Positions 3,356 to 61,453 of a stretch of 64,000 nt of DNA are shown one piece after another. The position numbers were made by a program, and so were the translations under genes. Under the pieces are notes generated by a model that worked only from the letters and a program-made list of their open reading frames with translations, was not told where the DNA came from and did not search any database. Numbering within the stretch: the stretch's first letter is position 1; each line of letters starts with the position of its first letter. Origin of the DNA: an uncultured Thermoleophilia bacterium (GTDB lineage Bacteria; Actinomycetota; Thermoleophilia; UBA2241); NCBI GenBank assembly GCA_963702475.1, contig CAVPCT010000006.1:224001-288000 (forward strand), read 5' to 3'.

Positions 3356-3720
3356 GTGCTCTCATCGTGCTCGGTCACGGCAGTCGCAACGCCGCGGCCA
3401 CCGAGCAGTTCCACGTGGTCGTCGAGCAGCTGCGCGTGCGCCGGGACGACCCGGTGTACGCCGCCTTCATGGAGCTCGCCGAGCCCACGCTGGGCGACGC
3501 GGTCGCGGAGGCCGTCGGCGCCGGCGCCGCCGAGGTCGTGGTGCAGCCATGCTTCCTGTTCGACGGCAACCACATCCGCCGCGACGTCCCCGAGCTCCTC
3601 AGCGGGCTCGCCGCCCGGTATCCGGACGTCTCGTTCAGGTTCGGACGTCCCATCGGACCCGATCCGCGTGTCGCCGACATCCTGCTCGAACGTGCCGGGG
3701 AGGCCGCATGTCTGGCCTGA
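3352..3720 (+). CDS. cbiX: sirohydrochlorin cobaltochelatase, short single-domain CbiX type
   Basis: LGHGSR, AFMELAEP, PCFLFDGNH...DVP; 122 aa. Confidence 0.88.
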   Translation: MSALIVLGHGSRNAAATEQFHVVVEQLRVRRDDPVYAAFMELAEPTLGDAVAEAVGAGAAEVVVQPCFLFDGNHIRRDVPELLSGLAARYPDVSFRFGRPIGPDPRVADILLERAGEAACLA

Positions 3721-4331
3721 AGCCGCACGAGATCGAGGTCCGCAGCATGGAGATCATCGACGGCCTCCTGCCCGCGGGCGACTGGGATGCGGGCGAGCGC
3801 ACGGTGGTCAAGCGTCTCGTGCACACGAGCGGCGATCCCTCGCTGGCCGGGGAGGTGCGGTTCTCCGCCGGCGCCGTTGCGGCCGGCGTGGCGGCGCTGC
3901 GCGCGGGCGTGCCCGTGTTCACCGACACCCACATGGTGCGGATGGGCATCAACCGGGACCGCGTCGCCGCGCTGGGCGGGACGGTGGAGTGCCTGATCTC
4001 GGACGAGGCCGTGGCGGCCGAGGCGAAGCGGACCGGCCGCACGCGTGCGGCGACGGCCATGCGCACGCTGGGCGCCCGGCTCGATGGTGCGGTGGTCGCG
4101 CTGGGGAACGCGCCGACCGCGCTGCGCGAGGTGCTGGTGATGGCGACGGAAGGCGTGGCGCGTCCGGCGCTGGTCATCGGCATGCCGGTCGGGTTCGTCG
4201 ACGCGGCCGAGTCCAAGGATGCACTCATCGACTCCGACCTGGCGTTCGTCGCGGTCCACGGCACGCGCGGCGGCAGCCCGCTCGCCGCGGCGACCGTCAA
4301 CGCCCTGCTGCGCGTGCTCGCCGAGGAGTGA
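3708..4331 (+). CDS. cbiC: cobalt-precorrin-8 methylmutase
   Basis: EIEVRSMEII, TRAATAM, GNAPTAL, GMPVGFV..AESK, RGGSPLAAATVNAL. Confidence 0.95.
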   Translation: MSGLKPHEIEVRSMEIIDGLLPAGDWDAGERTVVKRLVHTSGDPSLAGEVRFSAGAVAAGVAALRAGVPVFTDTHMVRMGINRDRVAALGGTVECLISDEAVAAEAKRTGRTRAATAMRTLGARLDGAVVALGNAPTALREVLVMATEGVARPALVIGMPVGFVDAAESKDALIDSDLAFVAVHGTRGGSPLAAATVNALLRVLAEE

Positions 4332-4369
4332 GCGGGACGGACGTGGACGGGACGGCCGGAAGGGAAGCG

Positions 4370-6200
4370 ATGACGACGGAGCGGACACGGGGTCGGGATA
4401 CCGCGGCGGAGGCGGAGCCGCGCAGCGGCCTGACGACGGGCACGTGCGCCGCCGCCGCCACGAAGGCGGCGGCCCTGGCGCTCGCCGGCGCGCCTTGCGC
4501 CGCGGTGGACGTCGAGCTGCCCGGCGGTGACGTCGTGACCCTGGCGGTCGAGTGGACCGAGCGCCCGCGACCCGGCTGCGCCCGCGCGGCCGTCGTGAAG
4601 GACGCGGGCGACGACCCGGACGTGACCGACGGCATGACGGTGGTCGCCGAGGTCGAGGTGCTCGACACGCTTGAGGCGGCCGGGTCCGGCGGCGCCCCGC
4701 CGGCCGAGCCCGACGGCGTGACCTTCGCTGCCGGCCCGGGCGTCGGCACGGTCACCCGGGCCGGGCTGCAGGTGCCGCCCGGCGAGCCGGCCATCAACCC
4801 CGTGCCGCGCCGCATGATCACGGAGGCCGTGCGCCAGGTGTTGCCCGAGGGCGCGCTGCGCGTCACCGTGAGCATCCCCGGCGGCGAGGAGACGGCGCGG
4901 CGCACGTTCAATCCGCGGCTCGGCATCGAAGGCGGGCTGTCGGTGCTGGGTACGTCGGGCCGCGTGATACCGAAGTCGGAGGACGCCTGGCTGCGCTCGC
5001 TGCTGCCCGCAGGTCGACATGGCGCTGGCCGAGGGTCACTCGAAGCTGTACCTTGCGCCCGGCGGCTTCGGTGAGCGCGCCGCGCGCGAGCAGCTGGGCG
5101 CGCCCGAGGCAGCGATCGTGCAGTGCTCCAACTTCGCCGGCGACCTGCTCGACCACTGCGCCGACAGGGGAGTCGAGCAGGTCGTGTTCGTCGGCCACGC
5201 CGGCAAGCTCGTCAAGCTCGCGGCCGGCATCTGGAACACGCACAGCCGGTACGGCGATGCGCGCCTTGAGACGCTCGCCGCGCTGGCGGCCGCCGCAGGC
5301 GCGCCGCCCACGGTCGTGACGAAGCTGCTCGACCTGCCGACCGCCGAGGCGGCGGCGGCGCTGCTCGCCGAGGCCGGTCTGGACGATGTCTGGGACGACG
5401 TGGCGGACCGCGTCGTGTGGCGCGCCGCCGAGCGCGTCGCGAAGCGCGCCGCGGAACTGCCGTGCTGTGATTGTGCCGTGGTGGCGTACGACGGCGAGGT
5501 ACTGGGCCGCTCGGCGGCGCTGCGCGCCGCGCCGGCGTCTGCACCGCCCTCGGGACCGCCCGCAGCCTCACCCGCGTTCGAGCTGACGGTCGTCGGGGTC
5601 GGCCCTGGCGCCGACGAGTGGCTCACGCCTGCCGCGTGGCGTGCGGTGCGCCACGCCGACGTGGTCGTCGGCGGCCACCGCCAGCTCGAGCGGTTCGCCC
5701 CTGCCGGGGCTGAGAGGGTGGTCGTGGGAGCCAGGATGGAGGACGTCGCGGCGGCACTGCGTCGCTGCGCCGGGCGTCGCGTGACCGTGCTGGCCAGCGG
5801 CGACCCCGGCTTCTACGGCATCCCCGTCGCCTTGCGCCGCCTGCTGCCGGACGCTCACGTAGTCACGCTGCCCGGCATCAGCTCGGTGCAGCTGGCGGCA
5901 GCGCGGCTGGGTCGCCCCTGGCACGATGTCTGCTTCGCGAGCGCGCATGGCCTCGAGACCGCCGGCGTGGTCGAGGCCGTGCGGGCCCACCCGCGGGTCT
6001 TCGCCCTGAGCGACGCGGCACACGCGCCGCAGACTCTGGCGGCCGCGCTTGTCGCCGCGGGCATCGCCGCTCTCGTCACGGTGCTGGAGCGACTCGGGGA
6101 GCCCGACGAGCGTCTCACCGCGGGCGACGCGGCCGTCATCGCCGAAGGCGAGTTCGACGGCCTCGCCGTGACCTTCATCGAACGAGAGGAGCAGGCATGA
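4370..6200 (+). CDS. cbiD: CbiD fused to C-terminal CbiE methyltransferase; one apparent frameshift near 5006-5008
   Basis: RSGLTTGTCAAAA, VKDAGDDPDVT, GPGVG.VT..GL, FNPRLGIEGGLSVLGTSG in one frame; GHAGKLVKLAAGIWNTHS then VVGVGPG/LASGDPGFYG/PGISS (CbiE) in the next frame; removing one C restores continuity. Confidence 0.88.
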
Positions 6201-9212: not shown

Positions 9213-9890
9213 CGGCGGCGGCGGTCGCGGCGCTCACCGCCGCGGACGTCGTGGTCGGCTACAAGCCGTACCTCGAGCTGGTCGCCGACCTGGCGGCCGG
9301 CAAGCGCACTGTCGCCAGCGGCATGCGCCAGGAGACGGCGCGGGCCGAGGCGGCCGTCGCCGAGGCGACGGCCGGCGCCCGCGTGGCCGTCATCAGCACC
9401 GGCGACGCCGGCGTGTACGGCATGGCCGGTCTCGTGCTGGAACTGCTGCCCGTGGGGTCGCCGGTCACCGTGGAGGTCGTGCCCGGCGTGACCGCGGCCA
9501 GCGCCGCGGCCGCCTGCCTGGGCGCTCCGCTGATGAACGACTTCGCCGTGGTCAGCCTCAGCGACCTGCTCACCCCGCTGGAGGTCATCGAGCGACGCCT
9601 CGCGGCGGCCGCCGACGGCGACTTCGTCCTCGCGCTCTACAACCCGCGCAGCACGAAACGGCACGTGCCGCTGCGCCGTGCGCTGGCGATCCTGCGCGAG
9701 CGGCGCGCAGCCGGGCACGCCGGTGGGCATGGTCCGCAACGCCCTGCGCGACGGGCAGGAGACCCGCGTGACGACGCTCGGCGAGCTGCGCGAGGAGGAC
9801 GTCGACATGCTCACCATCCTCATCGTCGGCAACAGCACGACCGTCATTCGCGACGGACGTATCGTGACCCCTCGGGGGTACCGCACGTGA
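9074..9890 (+). CDS. cbiH: cobalt-precorrin-3 C17-methyltransferase; overlaps cbiG; apparent frameshift near 9713
   Basis: LVGLGPG, VVGYKPY, ISTGDAGVYGMAG, GAPLMNDF, ALYNPRS, then shifted frame PVGMVRNA...VDMLT..IVGNS..TPRGY. Confidence 0.9.
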
Positions 9891-11255
9891 TCCTCCTGCT
9901 CGGAGGGACGGGCGACGCGCGCGAGCTGGCGGCCAAGCTGCGGCGCGCCGGTCACGACGTGCTGCGTGAGCACCGTGAGCGAGTACGGCGCCCGCCTGGC
10001 GGCGGGCGCCGGCGCCGAGGTCCGCAGCGGCGCTCTGGACGAGGCCGAGCTGGACGGGCTCGTCGGTGAGGCGGTCGCCGTCGTGGACGCGACACACCCG
10101 TTCGCCGCGGCGATCTCCGCGGCGGCGGAGGCGGCCTGCGAACGGCGCGGCCGGCCGTACCTGAGGTTCGCGCGGCCGGCTCGCGAGCTCGGCGACGGCG
10201 TCGTGCGCGCGACGGACGCCGCGAAGGCCGCGCGCCTGGCGGTGGTCGCGGCGCTCGCCGGGGCGCGCGATGAGGCGGCCGGCGGTGCGCCGCCGGCGAT
10301 CCTGCTCACCGTCGGCAGCAAGACGGTGGACGTGTACGCGCGTGCGGCCCGCGAAGCCGGTGTGCGCGTGGTCGCCCGCGTGCTCCCGGTCCCTGAGTCG
10401 TTGGCGGCCTGTGCCGCTGCCGGCCTGGAGCCGCGCGACATCGTGGCCATGCAGGGGCCGACGACGGCGGAGGTGGACGCCGCGCTGCTCCGTCACCTGG
10501 GCGCGAGCGTCCTGGTGACGAAGGACAGCGGCGACGCCGGCGGTCTGGGCGAGAAGCTGCGCGCCGCCGAGCTGGCCGGCGCAACGGCCGTCGTCGTCGC
10601 GCGACCCGGATCGGCCGCCGCCGGCGAGGCTGCGCCGGCCGGCGCTGAAGCCTCGGACGTCACCGCCGTGCTCGCCTGGCTCGCGGGGATCGGCAGGCGA
10701 TCCGAGGGCACGCCGAAGGCCGGCGCGGACCGGAGCCTCTCGCGCGGCCTCCTGCAGGTCTACACCGGTGACGGCAAGGGCAAGACCACCGCCGCCGCCG
10801 GCCTGGCGCTGCGCGCCCGCGGCGCCGGCCTGCAGGTCGTCTTCGTCCAGTTCGTCAAAGGCGGAACAGAGAGTTCGGAGCTGGCGCCGCTGCGCGCCTC
10901 CGGAGTGCGTGTCGAGCGCCCTGCGGTCGCGCGCAGCGGCCTGCTCCGAGGAGAAGTGACGCCTGAAGACCGGGCCGCCGCCGCCGCGGCCTGGGCCGCG
11001 GCCCGGGCGGCCCTGACCGACGGGTCCTGCGACCTCGTGGTGCTCGACGAGCTGCACGCCGCCCTGCGGCACGAGCTCGTCGAGCTGGACGAGGTCCTCG
11101 CTGCGCTCGAGGCTCGTCCGGCGCACCAGGAGGTCGTGACCACCGGCCGCGGCGCGCCGCAGGCGCTGCTCGACGCGGCCGGTCTGATCACCGAGATGAC
11201 CGTCATGCGCCACCCGTATCCCGACGTCCCCGCCCGCAGAGGAATCGAGCTGTGA
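9887..11255 (+). CDS. cbiJ: precorrin-6x reductase CbiJ fused to cob(I)yrinate adenosyltransferase (CobO/BtuR type); apparent frameshift near 9965
   Basis: ILLLGGTGDA, VVDATHPFA, AMQGP, LVTKDSG..GG..EK, then in the same frame GLLQVYTGDGKGKTTAA.GLALRA.GAG, VVLDE, VVTTGR, ARRGIE. Confidence 0.88.
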
Positions 11256-12876
11256 ACCCTTCGCCGTCGCCCGCCACGCCCGCCCGTCCGGCCCCCAGCA
11301 CCGCATCAGTCACCGGCTCCCGACAGTCCGGCGCCCGCGCCGTCATGTGCGTCGGCACCGGCTCGCACGCCGGCAAGAGTGTGCTGGCAGCCGCCCTCTG
11401 CCGCATCTACGCACGCCGCGGCTACCGCGTCGCGCCGTTCAAGTCCCAGAACATGGCCCTCAACTCGTTCGTCACGCCGGAGGGCGGCGAGCTCGGCCGC
11501 GCGCAGGCGTACCAGGCGCGCGCGGCTGGGGTCGAGCCGCACGTGGACATGAATCCGGTGCTGCTCAAACCGAGCTCTCAGACCGGCAGCCAGGTCATCG
11601 TCCTCGGCCGTCCCGTGCGCCACATGTCGGTGCGCGAGTACCACGCGTACCAAGCCGAGGCGTGGCCGATCGTCACCGCCGCCTACGAGCGCCTGCGCGC
11701 CGTCAACGACCTCATCGTCATCGAGGGTGCCGGCAGCCCGGCCGAGATCAACCTCCGCGGCCAGGACATCGTCAACATGAAGGTCGCGCTCTACGCCCAG
11801 TGCCCCGTGTTGCTCATCGGCGACATCGACCGCGGCGGTGTGTTCGCCAGTCTGGTAGGCCACATGGAGCTGTTCACGCCGGAGGAGCGCGAGCGCGTCG
11901 CAGCGTTCGTCATCAACAAGTTCCGCGGGGACGCGAGCCTGCTGGACTCCGGCATCGAGTTCCTGCAGGAGCGGACCGGCGTGCCGACCCTGGGCGTCGT
12001 GCCCATGCTCACCGATTGGCGCGGGGACGAGGAAGACTCGCTCGGCATCGAGGACCGGCGGCGCCGGGCGAAGCCGGATGCGCCGCTGCAGGTCGCCGTC
12101 GTGCGCCTGCCGTTCATCAGCAACTACACGGACTTCGACGCCCTTGCCGACGAGCCGGACGTGAACGTGCGGTACGCGACGACGCCGGCAGAGCTGGACG
12201 GTGCGGCCGCGGTCGTGCTGCCCGGCACCAAGAGCACGATCGCCGACCTGCGAGTGGCTGCGAGACGAGCGGCATGGCGGCGGCGGTGCTGGCGCGGGCC
12301 GCCGCCGGCACGCCTGTGCTCGGCGTGTGCGGCGGCTACCAGATGCTCGGCCGCCGCATCCACGACCCCGAGCATGTCGAGTCCGACGCCGGCAGCGTCG
12401 ACGGCCTCGGCCTGCTCGACGTCGAGACGACGTTCGCCGGCGACAAGCGCACCGTGCGTGTGGAGGGCGAGTTGCTCGGCGCCGGGGACGGCACGCCGTC
12501 GGCCCTCGGCCCGGCCGGCACGCCGTTGCACGGCTACGAGATCCACATGGGCCGGACCACGCTCGGCTCCGGCGCCGCGCCGCTGCTGCGGCTGCGCGGC
12601 GCCGACGGCTCGGTGCACGACGACGGCGCCGTCTCGGCCGCCCCGGCTTCGCCCGCCGCCCCCACGGCCGTCTGCGGCAGCTACGTGCACGGCATCTTCG
12701 ACCATCCGGCTTTGGGCGGCGCGTTCCTCGACGGGCTCCGCGCCGCCCGCGGCCTGCCGCTCCGCGGCGCGACCGCGACCCCGCCCGACGACGACATCGA
12801 CCGCCTCGCCGACCACGTCGAGGCCCATCTGGACGCCGAGCTCCTCGAACGCATCGTCGGCTTGGAGGCACGATGA
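11252..12876 (+). CDS. cbiP: adenosylcobyric acid synthase; apparent frameshift(s) at 12250-12262
   Basis: GTGSHAGKS, PFKSQNMALNS, MNPVLLKP, EGAGSPAEINL, DIDRGG, ISNYTDF, LPGTKST, then GVCGGYQMLG, GYEIHMG, GSYVHG. Confidence 0.93.
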
Positions 12877-14445
12877 CCGACCACATCGCCACTGCGATCG
12901 TCACCCCGGAGGGTGACCTGGCGTCTGACGTCACCCCCGAGGGTGACGTTCCTGAGGGCGTCGTTCCCGGCACCGTCTACCTCGTCGGCGCCGGCCCCGG
13001 CGACCCCGGGCTGCTGACCCGTCATGGCGCCGACGCCCTCTCCCGCGCCGACGTCGTCGTCTACGACCGTCTCGCGGACAACTCGATGCTTTCCCTCGCG
13101 CCGGCCGACGCCGAGCTGATCTACGTGGGCAAGCAGGCCGCCGTGCACGCCGTGCCGCAGAAGCGCATCAACGAGTTGCTGGCCGAGCACGCGCTGCAGG
13201 GCAAGTGCGTCGTGCGCCTCAAAGGCGGCGACCCGTTCGTGTTCGGTCGCGGCGGCGAGGAGGCCACGCATCTGCGTGAGCGCGGCGTGCCGTTCATCGT
13301 CGTCCCCGGGGTGAGCTCGTCCATCGCCGCCCCAGCCTACGCGGGCATCCCAGTCACCGACCGCCGGTACGCCAGCAGCTTCGCCGTCATCACCGGGCAC
13401 GAGGACCCGACCAAGCCGTGCTCGCGGGTCGACTGGGCCGGCGTCGCCAAGGGCGCCGACACCCTGGTGTTCCTCATGGCACTGACCAATCTGAAGGCAG
13501 TGGCAGAGCGGCTGATCGTCGAGGGCCGCCCGGCGGAGACCCCTGCGGCCGTCATCGAACGCGGCACCACGCCTGGCCAGCGCGTCGTCACCGGCACCCT
13601 GGCCGACATCGAGGCGCGTGTGCGGAGCGCCGGCCTGCACCCTCCGGCGCTCATCGTCGTCGGCGAGGTCGTGAAGCTGCGCGACGTGCTCGCCTGGCAC
13701 GACACGCAGCCGCTGGCCGGGCGCCGCATCCTGGTGCCCCGCGTGCGGCGGCGTCCCAGCGAGATCGTGCGGCTGCTCAAGGCCGCCGGCGCCGACACCG
13801 CCGAGGTGCCGGTGCTGCGCTCCGACACCCTGCCGGCGGCGCCGGACCTGGTGCAGCGTCTGCACGCGGCGGCATGGCTCGTGTTCACCTCGCCGGGCGG
13901 CCTGGATGCGTTGCTCGAGCAGCTTGCGGAGCTGGGCCTCGACGTGCGCGCCCTCGGCGCCGCGCGGGTCGCGGCCGTCGGTCCCGCCACTGCCGCGCAC
14001 CTGCGCCGTCACGGCCTGCGCGTCGATCACGACGCCGGAGACCCCGGCGAGCTTCGTGCCGGCCTGCCGGACGTGCGCGGAGCGACCCTGCTGCTGATCG
14101 GCGAGGCCCGCGGGGAGACGACCACGTGGCCCGCGGCCTCGACGCCCTCGCCGCCCAGGTCATCGTCACGCCGGTGTTCCGCATCGCCGTCGATGACCGC
14201 GCCCCGCTGCCCCCGGTGGACGAGTTCGACGCCGTGGCGTTCGCCAGCTCGAACACGGCACGGCGCTTTCTGGAGGCCTACCCGGACGGGCCGGCCGACG
14301 GGCAGTACCTGGTGAGCATCGGGCCTTCCACGACGGCGACGGCCCGGTCGTTGGGACTCCGGGTGGACGACGAGGCGGCAGAGTCGTCGCCTGCGGCCGT
14401 GGTACGGCTGATCATCGAGAGGCTCGGCCCGGCGGCGCGTCGTGA
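12873..14445 (+). CDS. cobA: uroporphyrinogen-III C-methyltransferase/uroporphyrinogen-III synthase fusion (CobA-HemD); frameshift near 14113, 3' end uncertain
   Basis: VYLVGAGPGDPGLLT, VVYDRL, VRLKGGDPFVFGRGGEE, YAGIPVT, then PLAGRRILV, VFTSPGG, AVGPATA, FASSNT, SIGPST. Confidence 0.88.
12900..12948 (+). repeat. two copies of a GTCACCCCNGAGGGTGAC inverted-repeat unit (VTPEGD) at the 5' end of cobA
   Basis: Direct reading: gtcaccccggagggtgac ... gtcacccccgagggtgac. Confidence 0.6.
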
Positions 14446-14461
14446 CGCACGGGTCCTTCGA

Positions 14462-15210
14462 TCAGCCGCGACTGCCGCGGCTCCGCGGGTCAGGACTCCG
14501 GGCTGGCCTCGGCCAGCACGCGCACGAGCACGGCGCGCGCCTGTACCTCGGCCTCAGCGGCCTGCCGGCAGCCGCCAACAGCCGCGCCAGCGGCAGGTCG
14601 AGCACCTCGTGCCAGGCCGCGCGCCGCGCGGCCGGCGGGACGCCGGCCGCGATCGCGCGCGGCTCCCACTCGGCCCTGAGGCGTCCGAGCAGCTCAGTGA
14701 GCGCGCCCCACTCGGGGCCGAACTCGGCGTCCAGCCGTTCGCGGATGCGGCGCGCGAGCGCGGGGCTCGCGCCGCCGGTCGAGACCGCGATGCGCAGCGC
14801 GCCGCGGCGCACGACGGCCGGCAGCACCACGTCGCCTTCGTCCGGCTCGTCCACGACGTTCACCCATACGCCGCGCTCGCGCGCGAGCCGCGCGACGCGG
14901 GCGTTGAGCTCGCGGTCGTCGCTGGCCGCCACCGAGAGCGTGACGCCGTCGAGGTCGTCGTCGCGGAACGGTCGCAGCGTGACCGTCACGCCGCCGGGCA
15001 TCGCCAGGCACTGGGGAGCAACCACCGTGACGGCGCGCCCGCCTCGGCCAGGCCCTCCGCCTTGCGCTGCGCCACGACACCGCCGCCCACCACGAGGCAG
15101 GGACGCCCGCGCAGGTCGAGCCCGGCCTGGTACAGGCGCCGGGGCTCGTGGCCGCCGGCGGCCCCGGCACCCGTCCTCGCGTCGTCAGGCTCTGGTGCTT
15201 GCTCGCTCAC
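14462..15210 (-). CDS. sirC: precorrin-2 dehydrogenase (SirC/CysG N-terminal type); frameshift near 15030, 3' end uncertain
   Basis: LDLRGRPCLVVGGGVVAQRK then shifted frame VVAP...NVVDEP..GD.VLPAVVRRG.LRIAVSTGGASPALARRIR. Confidence 0.87.
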
Positions 15211-15263
15211 GCCGCACAGGATACACGCCGCTCGTGCGGCCTTGTCGCCGGGGGGAGCTGACC

Positions 15264-16997
15264 GTGCACATCATGGAGGGCTACCTGCCGCCGCTGTACG
15301 CCGCCGTCTGGACGGTCGCCTCGGCGCCGGCCGTGGTGCAGAGCGTGCGCAGCACGGCGCGCATCGTCAACGAGAAGCGCTCGTCGCTGCTTCTCCTCGG
15401 CGCGGCCGGCGGCTTCTGCTTCGTGCTCTCGGCCCTCAAGCTCCCGTCGGTCACCGGCAGCTCATCGCACCCCACGGGGGTAGGCCTGGGGGCGATCCTG
15501 TTCGGACCCTGGGTGATGGTCCTCGTGGGGACCATCGTGCTCGCCTTCCAGGCGCTTCTGCTCGGTCACGGCGGCATCACGACCCTGGGAGCCAATGTCT
15601 TCTCCATGGCCATAGTGGGCTCGTTCGTCGCGTACTTCACGTGGCGCCTCGCCCGGCGTAGAGGTCTCTCGATGCCGGTGTCCGCGTTCCTCGCCGCCAT
15701 GTTCAGCGACCTTGCGACCTACCTGACCACGTCTGTGCAGTTGGCCTGGGCGTTTCCCGACCCAGCCGGGGGCTTCATCGGATCCCTGGCCAAGTTCGCC
15801 GGGGTGTTCGCGTTCACGCAGCTGCCCCTCGCGGTCGTGGAGGGTGTCCTGACCATGCTCGTGGTCCAGACGCTCCTCGCCCACGGGCGCGCCGACCTGG
15901 CCGCCACCGGCTTGCTCGAAGACGACAAGACCCCGGCCGTGGCCTTTCGCAAGGTCGCTGTGGCCGGCGGCCTCGCCGTGCTTGTCGTCGTGGCCGCCGC
16001 CGCTCTCGTATCGTTCGGTGTGCTGGATCTCGGTGGTTCGGACGACAAGGCGCAGGCCGCCGTCGACGCGCTCCGGCCGGGCTACACGCCGTGGTTCCGG
16101 ACGCTCTGGGAACCGGGGAGCTCGGGTCTGGAGAGCGCTCTCTTCGCGCTGCAGGCGGCGATCGGCGTAGCCGCCATCAGCCTCTACGTGCGGCACGTGC
16201 GCCGCCGCCGCCGCGACATGTCGCGACGCGAGCAGGGCGGCGGCCTGAACCTCATCGACAGCGCCGCCCACGGCAACCGCATCGCCCGTGCGAGTGCGGT
16301 GGAGAAGATGACCTTCACGGCAGGGATGCTGCTGCTCGCCCTGGTCCTGCCGCCGATACCCGGGGACCTGTTCGTCATCGCCGCGGCCGTGATCGCGACG
16401 CTCGCCGTGGCGCGTATCCCGTTGCGCGTCTACGCCAAGGTCATGGCGATCCCGCTCGTCTTCCTGCTCATCGGCGTGGTGCCTCTGCTCTTCAGTCTCA
16501 CGCTCGGCGGCCCTGGGCTCCTGCGTCTTTCGGCGGCCCCGGACGGACCGCAGCTCGCGCTGCGCGTGGCGCTGCGCGCGGCCGCCGGCCTCACCAGTCT
16601 CATCTTCCTGGCTCTCTCCACCCCCCTGCCGCAGATCCTGCTGGCCCTGCGCCGCATGGGCATGCCGGCGGTGGTCGTCGAGGTCGCGGCGCTCGTCTAC
16701 CGCTCCATCTGGACCTTCGTCGAGACGGTCGCGGCCACCCGCCGCGCCCAGGCGGCGCGGCTGGGGTATCGCTCGTTCCGCAGCTCGTACCGCTCGTTGG
16801 GCATGCTGACCGCCTCGTTCTTCGGCCGCTCCCTGCAGCGCGCCCGTGCCCTGGAGAACGGCCTCGCGGCGCGCAACTGGCACGGTGAGCTCCGCGTGCT
16901 CGACGAGGAGGCGGCGGTGTGCGTCAAGCACGTGACGCTGATCATCGGCCTGCAGGCCGTCATCGTCCTGCTTACGCTGCTCTGGGTGCTGCAGTGA
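15264..16997 (+). CDS. cbiM: cobalt ECF transporter, CbiM-CbiN-CbiQ encoded as one ORF
   Basis: N-terminal (V/M)HIMEG after SD; LKLPSVTGSSSHPTG, HGGITTLGAN (CbiM); GSDD.A...PGYTPWF..LWEP..LES.LFALQAAIG (CbiN); LSTP...YR..ARLGY..R (CbiQ). Confidence 0.88.
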   Translation: MHIMEGYLPPLYAAVWTVASAPAVVQSVRSTARIVNEKRSSLLLLGAAGGFCFVLSALKLPSVTGSSSHPTGVGLGAILFGPWVMVLVGTIVLAFQALLLGHGGITTLGANVFSMAIVGSFVAYFTWRLARRRGLSMPVSAFLAAMFSDLATYLTTSVQLAWAFPDPAGGFIGSLAKFAGVFAFTQLPLAVVEGVLTMLVVQTLLAHGRADLAATGLLEDDKTPAVAFRKVAVAGGLAVLVVVAAAALVSFGVLDLGGSDDKAQAAVDALRPGYTPWFRTLWEPGSSGLESALFALQAAIGVAAISLYVRHVRRRRRDMSRREQGGGLNLIDSAAHGNRIARASAVEKMTFTAGMLLLALVLPPIPGDLFVIAAAVIATLAVARIPLRVYAKVMAIPLVFLLIGVVPLLFSLTLGGPGLLRLSAAPDGPQLALRVALRAAAGLTSLIFLALSTPLPQILLALRRMGMPAVVVEVAALVYRSIWTFVETVAATRRAQAARLGYRSFRSSYRSLGMLTASFFGRSLQRARALENGLAARNWHGELRVLDEEAAVCVKHVTLIIGLQAVIVLLTLLWVLQ

Positions 16998-58185: not shown

Positions 58186-58582
58186 GTGCCTCAGGGTAAA
58201 GTCAAGTGGTTCTCGACGGAGAAGGCGTACGGCTTCATCGAGCAGGACAACGACAACGACATCTTCGTGCACGTCACCGGCCTGGCCGAGGGCGTGACCG
58301 CGATCGACAAAGACATGGTCGTCGAGTATGAGGTCGAGCAGGGCCGCAAAGGCCCGCAGGCTGCCAAGGTGCGTCCCGTCACCGCGTCGGCTGCGGCTGA
58401 TGCCCCGGCCGACGATGCGGCCGACGATGCGGCCGACGATGAGGCCGACGACCAGGCCGACGATGCAGGCCGACGACGCGGCCGACGATGCGGCCGACGA
58501 TGCGGCCGACGATGCGGCCGACGACCAGGCCGACGACGCGGCCGACGACGCGGCCGACGATGTGAGTGCCGAGGCCGAGTAA
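58186..58582 (+). CDS. cold-shock domain protein with long acidic repeat tail; 1-nt insertion in the repeat near 58467
   Basis: SD AAGGAG; GKVKWF..EK.YGFI, DIFVH, G.KGPQA; removing the extra base gives (ADDA)n-VSAEAE-stop at 58582. Confidence 0.88.
58408..58564 (+). repeat. tandem repeat, 13 copies of 12-nt GCCGACGA(T/C)NNG
   Basis: Counted directly; the fifth unit is 13 nt. Confidence 0.95.
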
Positions 58583-58596
58583 CTCCAGCTCTCTCA

Positions 58597-58649
58597 GGGG
58601 GCCGACCGTCGGGGCAGTGCTCGGAGCCCGGCGGCCGGCCCCTTCTCTG
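58597..58649 (+). terminator. probable intrinsic terminator after the cold-shock gene
   Basis: GGGGCCG...CGGCCCC stem followed by TTCTCT. Confidence 0.55.
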
Positions 58650-58723
58650 CGTACGTCGGGGTGCCTTCGGCGCTCCGTGGGTACCACTGTGTGAAGACGG
58701 CGTCCGGATTCTGGAGGCAGACC

Positions 58724-59371
58724 ATGATGGCGACCACAGACGGCATCCACTGGCTCGGGCACGACTCGTTCCGGCTGGAAGGCTCCGTGACCGTGTACTT
58801 CGACCCGTGGGAGCTCGTCGAGGGGCTGCCTGCCGGTGACGTCATCCTCATCACGCACGACCACTTCGATCACCTGAGCCTGCCGGACATCGAACGCCTC
58901 TCCGGGCCGGACACCGTGGTCGTCGGTCCGGCGGCTGTGACGGCGCAGGTGCGGGGGCAGAAGACCGTGACGCTGGCGCCGGGCGGGAGCGCGCAGGTCC
59001 AAGGCGTGGGGATCACCGCGGTGCACGCCTACAACACGAGCAAGTTCAGGAAGCCGGGTGAGGTGTACCACCCGCGCGACGACGATCACGTGGGGTACGT
59101 GGTTGAGCTCGACGGGCGGCGCGTGTACCACGCCGGCGACACCGACCACATCCCGGAGATGGACGATGTCCAGTGCGACGTCGCCCTCGTGCCGGTGAGC
59201 GGGACGTTCGTGATGACCGCGGACGAGGCCGCCGGCGCGTGCGGCAGCATCTCCTCCGCCATCGTCGTCCCGATGCACTTCGACAAGATCGTCGGCAGCA
59301 GGGACGACGCCGAGAGACTCAGCGCTCTCCGCGGCGCCACCGTGGTGATCCTGCCGAACGAGAACAGATGA
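58724..59371 (+). CDS. metallo-beta-lactamase-fold hydrolase
   Basis: WLGHDSF, DP, ITHDHFDH, YHAGDT, VPMHF. Confidence 0.92.
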   Translation: MMATTDGIHWLGHDSFRLEGSVTVYFDPWELVEGLPAGDVILITHDHFDHLSLPDIERLSGPDTVVVGPAAVTAQVRGQKTVTLAPGGSAQVQGVGITAVHAYNTSKFRKPGEVYHPRDDDHVGYVVELDGRRVYHAGDTDHIPEMDDVQCDVALVPVSGTFVMTADEAAGACGSISSAIVVPMHFDKIVGSRDDAERLSALRGATVVILPNENR

Positions 59372-59381
59372 GCCGGGAGGG

Positions 59382-59600
59382 TCAGGCCTCCTCGGCCACC
59401 CACTCAAGTACCACCGCGTCTTCGGGGCACGCTTCTTCAGCGCGCTCGACGCACGGCCACAGCGTCTCGTGGGGCTCCGGCTCGAGCACGTCGGGCAAGC
59501 CGTCGTCGCGCATGAAGAAGACTTCCGGGCACACCGCCTCGCAGGCGCCTACTCCGGTGCAGCGGTCGTAGTCCACGCTCACTCTGAGTCGTCTGACCAT
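59382..59600 (-). CDS. small ferredoxin, probably [3Fe-4S]
   Basis: VDYDRCTGVGACEAVCPEVF...ACPEDAV; C-x2-V-x2-C pattern; -10 TACACT ends 6 nt before ATG. Confidence 0.9.
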   Translation of the reverse strand: MVRRLRVSVDYDRCTGVGACEAVCPEVFFMRDDGLPDVLEPEPHETLWPCVERAEEACPEDAVVLEWVAEEA

Positions 59601-59913
59601 GGCCCGAGTGTACTACCTCGGACGTCCGGCTGGCGCGTCGTTTCCGACGACGGTCGTGTGGCAACAACTGGCGTGGGGAGCTGAGCGGGACGACCCTCAC
59701 CGCACGCTGTGCCGGTCGTTCGGGGTGATGGAGCTCACCGGTCGACACCGGACGCGTCCGGTGACGTTCCGGACGGACACGGCCGGCGTGGTGCGTCGGG
59801 TGTTCCAGGCGATCCCGCCGTGCGGGCATGCACGCGACGTTCTCGAGGCCGCGCGGGAGTCGTGGGCTGAGGCGCCGCAGGCGGGCTCAGCCGGAGATCG
59901 AGAGGAGGGACGC

Positions 59914-60363
59914 GTGCTCAAAGAAGGGGACAAGGCGCCGGGAGTGACCGGCACGTCGTACGACGGGGCGACGTTCGACTTGGGGTCGCCGGGCAAGAGA
60001 ACGGTGCTGTTCTTCTACCCCAAGGCGACCACGGGCGGCTGAACCACCGAAGCCGTTGAGTTCAACGGCCTGCTGGACGAGTTCGCCGCGCTGGATGCGC
60101 AGGTGGTCGGCGCGAGTGTGGACAAGCCGGCGTCGAACGAGCGCTGGGCACAGAAGTACGACCTCAAGATGCCGCTGATAAGCGACCACGGTGACCACAC
60201 GGTGGCGGGCGCGTTCGGTGTGGCGCGCCCCATGGTGGGCGTGGCCAAGCGTACCACCTGGCTCATCGATCCCGATGGGACGTTGCGCAAGATCTACCTG
60301 AAGGTGACGGCGAAGGGGCACGCCGCCCAGGTGCTCGACGACAGCCAGGAGCTCTGGGGCTGA
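59914..60363 (+). CDS. bcp: peroxiredoxin BCP/PrxQ with in-frame TGA at the peroxidatic position (probable selenocysteine, U43)
   Basis: SD GAGGAGG then GTG; LK.GDKAP...VLFFYPKATTGG-TGA-TTEA.EF...VVG.S.D...PL.SD...R.T.LIDPDG..GHA; both halves in the same frame. Confidence 0.88.
60052..60069 (+). other. putative bacterial SECIS hairpin
   Basis: GCCGTTG-AGTT-CAACGGC perfect stem; loop starts 16 nt after UGA and has G as its second base. Confidence 0.75.
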
Positions 60364-60391
60364 CCTGAGTCCCGGACAGGCGTACGAATCG

Positions 60392-60429
60392 GCAGACGGC
60401 CGGGGCGGCGTGCCGCCCCGGCCGTCTGC
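60392..60429. terminator. long perfect hairpin between convergent bcp and HD-domain genes
   Basis: GCAGACGGCCGGGGCGGC-GT-GCCGCCCCGGCCGTCTGC. Confidence 0.7.
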
Positions 60430-60445
60430 GTCACCGACCCGTCGG

Positions 60446-61453
60446 TCAATCGCCGGCTACGGGCTGGTCGCGTGGGCCGAGGTACGCCGCCGTGTCTATC
60501 ATGAAGATGCGCGACGACCAGCTGTCGCCGGCCGGCGTGCCGCGCTCGGCGTCGTCGACGGCGCCGATGCGGGCCGTCATGTCGTCGCAGTAGTGCACGA
60601 TGATGGCCTCGCGCGTCTGCGGGATGACGGGGCTGCCCTTCTCGCGCATGCCGTGGTGCGACACGATGATGTGCCGCAGCTGTTTGGCTGTCTCGGGCGG
60701 GAAGCCGGGGACCTCGGCGATGAGGCCGCGCACGATGTCGTGACCGATGACGATCTCGCCGTGCAGGCGGCCCTCATCGGTGAGCAGCGGCGCCATGGCG
60801 TCGCTCGTGTACGCCTCGATCTTGCCGATGTCGTGCAGGAGCGCGCCGGTGAGGACGAGGTCGCGGTCGACGGTGTCGAAGTTGTCGGCCACGCCGGCCG
60901 CCGTCTCGGCCACGATCACCGAGTGCTCCAGCAGCCCGTGCCGGTACGCGTGGTGGTTACGCACCGCGGCGGGCGCGACGAGGAACGTGGCGCCCGGCTC
61001 TCGGGAGCCGTCCAGGGCACGCTCGAGCAGGGCTCGCAGCCAGGGATCTGCGACCGAATCGACGAGGGCCGCGAGACGCTCGCCGAGTTCCGCGATGCCG
61101 ACCGGCGACACGGGAACGAGGTCGGCGGCGTGGTACTCGTCGGTCGCGGCCGGGCGCAGACGACGCAACTGGACCTGGGCGCCGTACTGCGGGTGGACGC
61201 TGTAGGTGCCGCCGGCGACGACGACGTCGCCGGCACTGAGGCCACAGGCCTCGTCGGATGGGTCGAAGTGGATGGCGTTGACCTCGCCGCTGGCGTCGCG
61301 AAGCTTGAGGCGGAGGTAGGTCTTGCCGTTGCGGTCGGTGGCCGCGGTGATCTCCGAGCAGGTGAAGTAGGTGTCCACGGCCTGGCCGCTCTCGAGATCG
61401 GCGATGGGCACCCTGGGCATGGCGGCAGCGAGGCCGCGGAGGTCGTTCAGCAT
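60446..61453 (-). CDS. OB-fold + HD-domain 3'-5' exoribonuclease (YhaM family)
   Basis: GK.YL.L.L.DASG, PAA..NHHAY..GLLEHS, LLHDIGK, T.EG.L.G, H.I.SHHG..E.GSP..P.T.EA. Confidence 0.9.
   Translation of the reverse strand: MLNDLRGLAAAMPRVPIADLESGQAVDTYFTCSEITAATDRNGKTYLRLKLRDASGEVNAIHFDPSDEACGLSAGDVVVAGGTYSVHPQYGAQVQLRRLRPAATDEYHAADLVPVSPVGIAELGERLAALVDSVADPWLRALLERALDGSREPGATFLVAPAAVRNHHAYRHGLLEHSVIVAETAAGVADNFDTVDRDLVLTGALLHDIGKIEAYTSDAMAPLLTDEGRLHGEIVIGHDIVRGLIAEVPGFPPETAKQLRHIIVSHHGMREKGSPVIPQTREAIIVHYCDDMTARIGAVDDAERGTPAGDSWSSRIFMIDTAAYLGPRDQPVAGD

Follow-up and report, generated by a model that had tools for sequence, protein, structure and literature searches.

A TGA codon inside an otherwise open reading frame raises the question addressed here: does it end a short gene, or is it read as selenocysteine (Sec) at the catalytic position of a longer one? 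The codon lies at positions 60040-60042 of a 64,000-nucleotide stretch of DNA (hereafter the window), corresponding to positions 224,001 to 288,000 of the forward strand of contig CAVPCT010000006.1 (assembly GCA_963702475.1), from an uncultured Thermoleophilia bacterium. All coordinates are those of the window, and features are on the + strand unless stated otherwise. An earlier note, made from the DNA letters and their open reading frames (ORFs), had proposed that the segment hides a Sec-containing peroxiredoxin with a Sec insertion sequence (SECIS) hairpin just 3′ of the TGA. We find that 59914-60363 is very probably a single gene for a BCP/PrxQ-class thiol-peroxidase of 149 residues, with Sec predicted to replace the peroxidatic cysteine; this core proposal is upheld by Cys/Sec pairing among homologues, conservation of both the TGA and the hairpin, purifying selection on the protein, and suppressed synonymous change over the hairpin.

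One reading frame across the TGA codon

The ORF list splits the gene into 59599-60042 and 60103-60363, but these share one frame and the sole stop between them is the TGA at 60040-60042, just as the earlier note had described. Readthrough from the GTG at 59914, the position at which the starts of the orthologues align, to the TGA stop at 60361-60363 yields 149 residues, including the segment FFYPKATTGG-U-TTEAVEFNG, and the product contains no cysteine, again in agreement with what had been claimed. A ribosome-binding site (RBS), AGGAGG, is located at 59903-59908, 5 nt upstream of the GTG, and a purine-rich GGAGG/GGGAGGGG block lies directly 5′ of the aligned start codon in 17 of 17 upstream regions, whose alignment reveals nothing else in common. 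We note separately that many upstream regions of the orthologues share a motif, CGTTTCGC, for which the window gave no alignment, and that the gap separating the divergent ferredoxin gene from the peroxiredoxin start (59601-59913) measures 313 bp, whereas L001 and loci like it have a gap of about 150 bp.

Protein family, fold, and active site

The readthrough product matches the Pfam AhpC-TSA domain (PF00578) over residues 5-126, and thus across the TGA, with 107.2 bits against a cut-off of 26 (E 6.9e-31), and Pfam Redoxin also matches; the query used in the Pfam, NCBIfam, PDB, and protein-collection searches (P0001) has one extra terminal C because the true stop at 60361-60363 was read through as well. 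A phmmer search of the PDB recovers BCP/PrxQ structures at E ~1e-19 and places residue 43, encoded by the TGA, opposite the peroxidatic Cys of 5enu and 5iph, such that the TGA does fall at the C of the PxxxTxxC motif (P36-K-A-T-T40-G-G-U43), as first proposed. The motif residues P36, T40, and U43 and a conserved R113 are all present; P36 and T40 (codons 36 to 40, 60019-60033) are nearly invariant in a 36-row alignment, A3, while R113 (60250-60252) is invariant in a second alignment, A1, and nearly invariant in A3. R113 pairs with the R of ERSTFLID in 5enu and 5iph, and we take it to be the catalytic arginine of peroxiredoxins. An AlphaFold2 (AF2) model built from A3, in which L071 was left out as having a stop codon in its row, is a single compact thioredoxin-like fold (pLDDT 95.7, pTM 0.91) with residue 43 as the first residue of a helix spanning 43-52, in the first turn of helix 2. 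The top Foldseek matches are BCP/PrxQ proteins with TM scores of 0.83-0.88, including Sulfolobus Bcp1, Xanthomonas PrxQ, and M. tuberculosis BcpB, among others.

The closest NCBIfam models are the Deinococcus-type PrxQ (NF053650; 82.2 against a cut-off of 260) and BCP (NF006960; 75.8 against 140), and because the protein scores below both equivalog cut-offs it is a distinct subfamily, the equivalog of neither. The selenoprotein models also miss it, with PrxU (NF040737) scoring 42.6 bits against 270, and Prx-SUH (NF045827) 32.9 against 298.

The resolving Cys of atypical 2-Cys BCPs, located either five residues after the peroxidatic one or in helix 3, is absent, and the window protein has Val48 and no Cys; valine is found five residues after the catalytic site in the Sec forms, where Cys forms from Acidobacteriota carry the second Cys of the BCP pattern GCTxEAC. 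A different position merits attention. Codon 144 (60343-60345), within the model helix 136-148, is AGC (Ser) in the window, one base off TGC, and among the 25 gap-free sequences used below in the analysis of selection it is TGC in twelve and TGT in two, thus encoding Cys in 14 of 25, including the nearest relatives of the window (L001-L013). The earlier statement that there is no resolving residue is therefore correct for the window protein, with its Ser144, but not for the family, which as a whole is not cysteine-free because of Cys144 in these sequences.

TGA and cysteine codons in homologues

A search of the protein collection gave 278 matches at E ≤ 1e-10, and 118 of the 120 best are pieces of 82-117 amino acids covering only the C-terminal 49-70% of the query. 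The only full-length proteins among these 120 are P0002 (149 aa) and P0003 (152 aa), both of which have Cys at position 43. In a 20-row alignment that includes 17 of the pieces, the longest begin immediately after residue 43, which we interpret as the trace left by a stop codon that many genomes have at this site.

For comparison at the DNA level we used the best 80 of 532 confirmed related stretches (L001-L080). The first 33 (L001-L033) are from Thermoleophilia, Actinomycetota, and Actinomycetes metagenome-assembled genomes (MAGs) at 50-87% identity, and L034-L080 are mostly from Acidobacteriota. Codon 43 reads TGA in L077 and in all but one of L001-L033 (32 loci), TGC in 38 loci, and TGT in eight; the exception, L024, has a frameshift near codon 20, and both the TGA and the hairpin are retained when the shift is taken into account. 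The Cys/TGA pairing that the earlier note had suggested looking for in homologues is therefore present, with 34 loci having TGA and 46 having TGC or TGT. Gene order is maintained in the TGA loci as metY-metX-metW-csp-MBL-fdx-prx-HD, the products being O-acetylhomoserine sulfhydrylase, MetX, MetW, a cold-shock protein, an MBL-fold protein, ferredoxin, and the peroxiredoxin, followed by an HD-domain gene on the opposite strand; these loci are therefore orthologous, and all 33 of the 33 actinobacterial orthologous loci, from different species-level genomes, have TGA at codon 43.

Three variants within this group are worth recording. L024 (10001-10460) carries one frameshift and L033 (10001-10480) two, which could be either assembly indels or signs of decaying copies. 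In L029 a second, diverged Sec paralogue with an identical hairpin (9406-9880, TGA at 9532) lies directly upstream of the orthologue. L031 and L032 (10001-10477) have an insertion of 10-12 residues right before the Sec position (…PKGGFVDELSDRLVPAWSP-U) that shifts the PxxxTxxU spacing.

These data bear directly on an alternative under which translation really ends at the TGA; the locus would then be a pseudogene, the product of a sequencing error, or a pair of small genes encoding an N-terminal peptide of at least 42 amino acids and a C-terminal protein of 86-107 amino acids. Gene callers do annotate it in this way, hence the preponderance of C-terminal pieces noted above, and frameshift-like breaks are seen in cbiD and hemD of the window as well as in the L024 and L033 copies. 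However, the recurrence of TGA at the identical codon in every one of the 33 orthologous loci excludes a pseudogene or a base-calling error, the RBS and the start 42 codons upstream are conserved, and neither half by itself would contain the catalytic residue or the complete fold. The patterns of substitution described below add to these objections, and we consider a true stop extremely unlikely, the least probable of the alternatives discussed here.

Selection on the protein and on the RNA

We analysed selection in 25 distinct gap-free sequences, comprising the window and 24 loci; L023, L025, L028-L033, and L077 were set aside for indels or frameshifts, and L024 as its motif was not located. 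The dN/dS ratio (NG86, 300 pairs) is 0.165 upstream of the TGA (codons 2-42) and 0.261 downstream (codons 54-149), and both halves are therefore maintained as protein, contrary to what is expected if the TGA ended the gene. The earlier note had named a lack of conservation 3′ of the TGA among the observations that would count against it; the orthologues instead show conservation there of the coding sequence (dN/dS 0.261) and of the hairpin, which is found in 31 of the 34 TGA sequences.

Synonymous sites behave quite differently where the hairpin lies. There is no synonymous diversity at all at codons 46-51 (GAA GCC GTT GAG TTC AAC), and the mean over codons 46-53 is 0.038, compared with 0.322 elsewhere; no other run of eight codons in the gene has so low a value (p 0.00175 from 20,000 column permutations), and dS is 0.12 over codons 44-53 as against 0.59-0.80 elsewhere. 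The codons so fixed are not those otherwise preferred. Codon 48 is GTT in 25 of 25 sequences, while GTT accounts for only six of the 328 valine codons at other positions of these genes and for 11 of the 609 counted over 17 window ORFs, and codon 46 is GAA in 25 of 25, compared with 25 of 135 elsewhere. The absence of synonymous change together with the freezing of non-preferred codons points to selection on the RNA rather than on the protein, a rare-codon conservation that a simple stop would leave unexplained.

A predicted SECIS hairpin

The perfect hairpin noted previously is read directly at 60052-60069, with a 7-bp stem formed by GCCGTTG (60052-60058) and CAACGGC (60063-60069) and a loop of AGTT (AGUU in the RNA; 60059-60062); the distance from TGA to loop is 16 nt and G is second in the loop, both as had been stated, and its energy is -10.2 kcal/mol. 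Published rules for bacterial SECIS (bSECIS) elements, as given in PMC13188914 (including its Fig. 2), call for an apical loop 3-9 nt long on an upper stem of 4-16 bp, a spacing of 16-37 nt between UGA and loop, an energy of -7.5 kcal/mol or lower, and a G at loop position 1 or 2, with G or U as the usual next base. The window hairpin conforms to every one of these, with its spacing at the lower limit. In a 56-nt context the fold has z = -3.2, with two of 200 shuffles as stable, and it is the comparison across loci, not the single sequence, that lifts the TGA and hairpin above chance.

Using a contiguous-stem search written for this analysis, we find a rule-compliant hairpin in 31 of the 34 TGA sequences and in only one of the 46 Cys-codon sequences (L071); the TGA sequences that do not conform are L026 (-6.8), L032 (-5.3), and L077, which has no contiguous stem. 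A 16-nt core of the hairpin was counted 33 times across the window and 82 loci, each time 10 nt after a TGA. In the 30 distinct rows of the 34-sequence alignment 97.1% of stem cells are paired, a share that falls to 14-59% if the 3′ side is displaced by one to three columns. Changes that preserve pairing include U-A to U-G in L031, U-A to C-G in L032, and G-C to G-U in L013 and L016; L031 and L032 hold the only compensatory changes, and the L032 stem also contains one C-A mismatch. No Rfam family matches anywhere in the window at gathering thresholds.

The nucleotides A and C immediately following the UGA are invariant in all 34 sequences. RNAalifold, applied to the same sequences, predicts a possible outer helix in which UGAAC (60040-60044) would pair with GUUCG (60081-60085) and so enclose the hairpin (60040-60085; alignment columns 4-8 with 45-49); it also appears in the single-sequence fold, and has no compensatory changes. 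Such a helix would take in the UGA itself, and along with the invariant A and C this is what might be expected if the UGA and hairpin served mainly as a selenium-sensing switch, with most translation ending at a 42-residue peptide and the full-length enzyme made only when Sec-tRNA is available. In known bacterial systems Sec insertion does compete with release factor, and this would allow for such a dual output. The 42-residue peptide, however, simply comprises the N-terminal strands of the fold with nothing hinting at a function of its own, and the proposal is more a quantitative nuance of Sec insertion than a separate mechanism; we regard it as very unlikely to be the main role of the element.

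Genetic code and the Sec machinery

TGA is not generally reassigned in this genome. It terminates 36 of the 38 coding-like ORFs of the window, as well as the peroxiredoxin gene itself, and we therefore exclude a genome-wide change of code.

Conservation of the UGA and SECIS element leads us to infer that the host genome carries selABCD. The search for Sec machinery covered the ~64 kb window and up to 20 kb from each related genome (80 loci), and several of its results weigh against a Sec-encoding gene, as do some other observations that we gather here. ARAGORN, run on the window and on the 34 TGA loci, detected no tRNA-Sec in either (a single tRNA-Asp was found, in L015); SelA, SelB, and SelD domains were not found by Pfam among 40 window ORFs; and tblastn with E. 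coli K-12 SelA, SelB, and SelD identified none of the three in the window or the actinobacterial loci. A second selenoprotein family was likewise not found in the window or the 34 TGA loci, by an insensitive scan for in-frame-TGA genes with coding-like third-position GC content (GC3) on both sides, which at its thresholds missed the window's own TGA; it returned only the Sec-peroxiredoxin family and the second L029 copy, the rest resembling gene ends or antisense frames. Covariation support for the hairpin is thin, with two-sided change at only two pairs, because the hairpin is almost invariant; the window assembly has the breaks in other genes already mentioned; and we found no report of Sec use in Thermoleophilia, though the supplementary tables of published surveys may list actinobacterial Sec-containing peroxiredoxins. 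The failure to find the machinery is weak evidence, since the searches covered a small part of each genome.

The sole clear tblastn match is a selB gene in L044 (66-1901; 30.7% identity over 645 columns to E. coli SelB), from an acidobacterial Candidatus Sulfopaludibacter MAG in which a gene for a Cys-type BCP is found some 8 kb away. Lesser matches are a partial GTPase-like sequence in L037 and a weak SelA match (23%) in L023, the latter of which we take to be another pyridoxal-phosphate (PLP) enzyme.

A conserved UGA and hairpin cannot in themselves distinguish insertion of Sec from insertion of Cys, and the hairpin might instead aid recoding of the UGA as Cys, or another residue; the adaptor would be a tRNA that resembles tRNA(Sec) but carries Cys, of the type proposed for selC* tRNA(Cys)/SelB* systems. 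The lack of visible sel genes in the window and actinobacterial loci searched is compatible with this, and when tested in E. coli a selC* tRNA(Cys) with a UCA anticodon is reported to decode opal codons as Cys (PMC5389517). According to the same paper, however, selC* comes from Firmicutes, Thermodesulfobacteria, Nitrospirae, and Proteobacteria and not Actinobacteria, and the genomes containing it also had a full Sec apparatus; for Actinobacteria it reports an 8/4 form of tRNA-Sec. A requirement for Cys alone could moreover be satisfied by TGC, as the Cys forms P0002 and P0003 within the clade illustrate, and since the UGA is kept with its frozen hairpin in 33 of 33 loci, Sec presumably brings some advantage over Cys. 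We thus think it improbable, with a small chance of being correct, that a residue other than Sec is inserted.

Evolution of Sec and Cys forms

A quick maximum-likelihood tree of 82 rows, unrooted, from which L024 and L033 were omitted and in which the Sec/Cys column was masked, separates a 36-row clade from a 46-row clade (SH-aLRT 100). The former contains 33 Sec rows along with P0002, P0003, and L065, whose long branch makes its placement unsafe; the latter contains 45 Cys rows and L077. P0002 and P0003, known here as proteins only, are thus Cys forms nested within the Sec clade of this unrooted tree, a position that fits secondary replacement of Sec by Cys. A contrasting case is L077 (10001-10441, TGA at 10130), an Acidobacteriota MAG sequence with TGA at the catalytic codon within an otherwise Cys-type clade. 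Its hairpin is different, being bulged with a GUU loop 17 nt from the UGA, and is no more stable than shuffled sequences (z = -1.06); L077 is probably an independent switch from Cys to Sec.

Proposed mechanism

By analogy with the established bacterial system, the UGA at codon 43 would escape being read as a stop, with the mRNA hairpin 11-28 nt downstream (loop AGUU) recruiting SelB with Sec-tRNA(Sec) so that Sec is inserted. The selenolate, at the N-terminus of helix 2, would be activated by T40 and R113 and would attack the peroxide to form a selenenic acid. As the window protein has no Cys, an external thiol reductant would be required to recycle it, most likely thioredoxin or a low-molecular-weight thiol, judging from related enzymes; there is no thioredoxin-like gene adjoining the peroxiredoxin among the window ORFs searched with Pfam. 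In the close orthologues, Cys144 may act as a resolving residue. Human peroxiredoxin 5 has its resolving Cys at a comparable C-terminal position, and a Sec43/Cys144 selenenylsulfide would be a resolving arrangement not known from BCP/PrxQ enzymes.

More speculatively, Thermoleophilia, soil actinobacteria that are for the most part uncultured, may keep an entire Sec-decoding apparatus chiefly for one PrxQ, its SECIS frozen at the nucleotide level throughout the class, with the enzyme switching within the clade between a 1-Sec form (as in the window, with Ala, Val, or Ser at position 144) and a Sec43/Cys144 form that recycles through an intramolecular selenenylsulfide to the C-terminal helix. 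As a whole we consider this rather unlikely.

Other features of the window

Between the convergent peroxiredoxin and HD-domain genes is a 17-bp perfect GC-rich inverted repeat (60392-60429, no strand assigned). The region 60364-60445 folds at -51.4 kcal/mol (z = -4.4, with none of 200 shuffles as stable), and the repeat is likely a transcript-end hairpin; it has no T-run, and hence was not reported by the consensus terminator scan. That scan, for promoters and terminators in 59500-60550, gave no match.

Upstream, a 12-nt tandem repeat (58406-58562; 13 copies, 89% match) follows right after the cold-shock domain of ORF 58186-58839, in the frame of which it encodes an acidic, A/D-rich low-complexity tail.

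The cobalamin genes of the window contain several irregularities. At 3356-6200 the CbiD profile is divided between two frames, its positions 2-179 matching that of 3356-5071 and its positions 186-254 that of 5019-6197; at 12201-15661 positions 2-94 and 123-229 of the HemD (HEM4) profile match in two separate frames; and the GATase_3 match in 11252-12913 ends at profile position 61 of 196. This suggests either assembly indel errors or real pseudogenes. Finally, stop-free ORFs join CbiJ and CobO (adenosyltransferase) at 9966-11255, and CbiM, CbiN, and CbiQ at 14442-16997, and are either true fusions or the result of lost stops.

Implications

Public annotation of the clade almost always splits or shortens the gene, as reflected in 118 of the 120 best matches, and because it also falls below the NCBIfam selenoprotein models, both the peroxide defence and the selenium dependence of Thermoleophilia MAGs are under-called. 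The near-invariant 18-nt hairpin offers a simple and specific marker with which to locate and correct such genes. Confirmation of the Sec machinery would add a widespread class of soil actinobacteria to the users of Sec. The natural Sec/Cys pairs within one clade (the window protein and P0002 or P0003), and the forms with and without Cys144, are ready comparisons for studies of catalysis.

Comparison with known systems

The Cys-type BCP/PrxQ enzymes, such as E. coli BCP, the Deinococcus-type PrxQ, and the structures 5enu, 5iiz/5iph, 3drn, and 5epf, have the same fold and active-site motif as the window protein; the differences are the predicted Sec in place of the peroxidatic Cys and Val48 in place of the resolving Cys. 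PrxU (NF040737) resembles it in having Sec for the peroxidatic Cys, but its profile has 233 positions while the window protein is of the 149-residue BCP/PrxQ type and is not an equivalog. PrxU of Eubacterium acidaminophilum was reportedly shown experimentally to be a Sec-peroxiredoxin by Sohling et al. in 2001, and is said to be the basis of the Sec-Prx family. Prx-SUH (NF045827), listed in PMC13188914, is likewise a selenoprotein with a peroxiredoxin fold, but has the motif CxxU, and the window protein is not a member. We found no literature on a bacterial Sec-PrxQ under the names PrxQ or bacterioferritin comigratory protein.

The hairpin can be compared with SECIS elements of the E. coli fdhF type and with the bSECISearch consensus, as given in PMC13188914. 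It is similar in lying right 3′ of the UGA and in having a small apical loop with G and then U; it differs in its sequence, which is unrelated, and its recognition by SelB is predicted.

Sec-containing peroxiredoxins were already known, as the earlier note had stated, and PMC9312934 and PMC13188914 list them as COG1225 (Bcp)/PF00578 with the motif TxxU. The family numbered 12 proteins in 2006 (PMC1794560, Table 1) and 91 proteins from 78 organisms in a 2016 survey (PMC5029168, Table 3), and five selenoproteins were recorded in 2006 for the deep-branching actinobacterium Rubrobacter xylanophilus (PMC1794560, Table 4). The window protein is like these, as they are described, in its Pfam domain, in the predicted Sec at the peroxidatic site of the TxxU/PxxxTxxU motif, in having Cys homologues, and in the bSECIS element 3′ of the UGA; the accessible portions of PMC9312934, PMC13188914, and PMC5029168 do not mention the Thermoleophilia clade. 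What distinguishes this clade from the rest of the family is a hairpin that is nearly invariant across it. The locus is very probably a genuine and conserved selenoprotein gene that adds a member to the established Sec-Prx family, and as such is no surprise to specialists.

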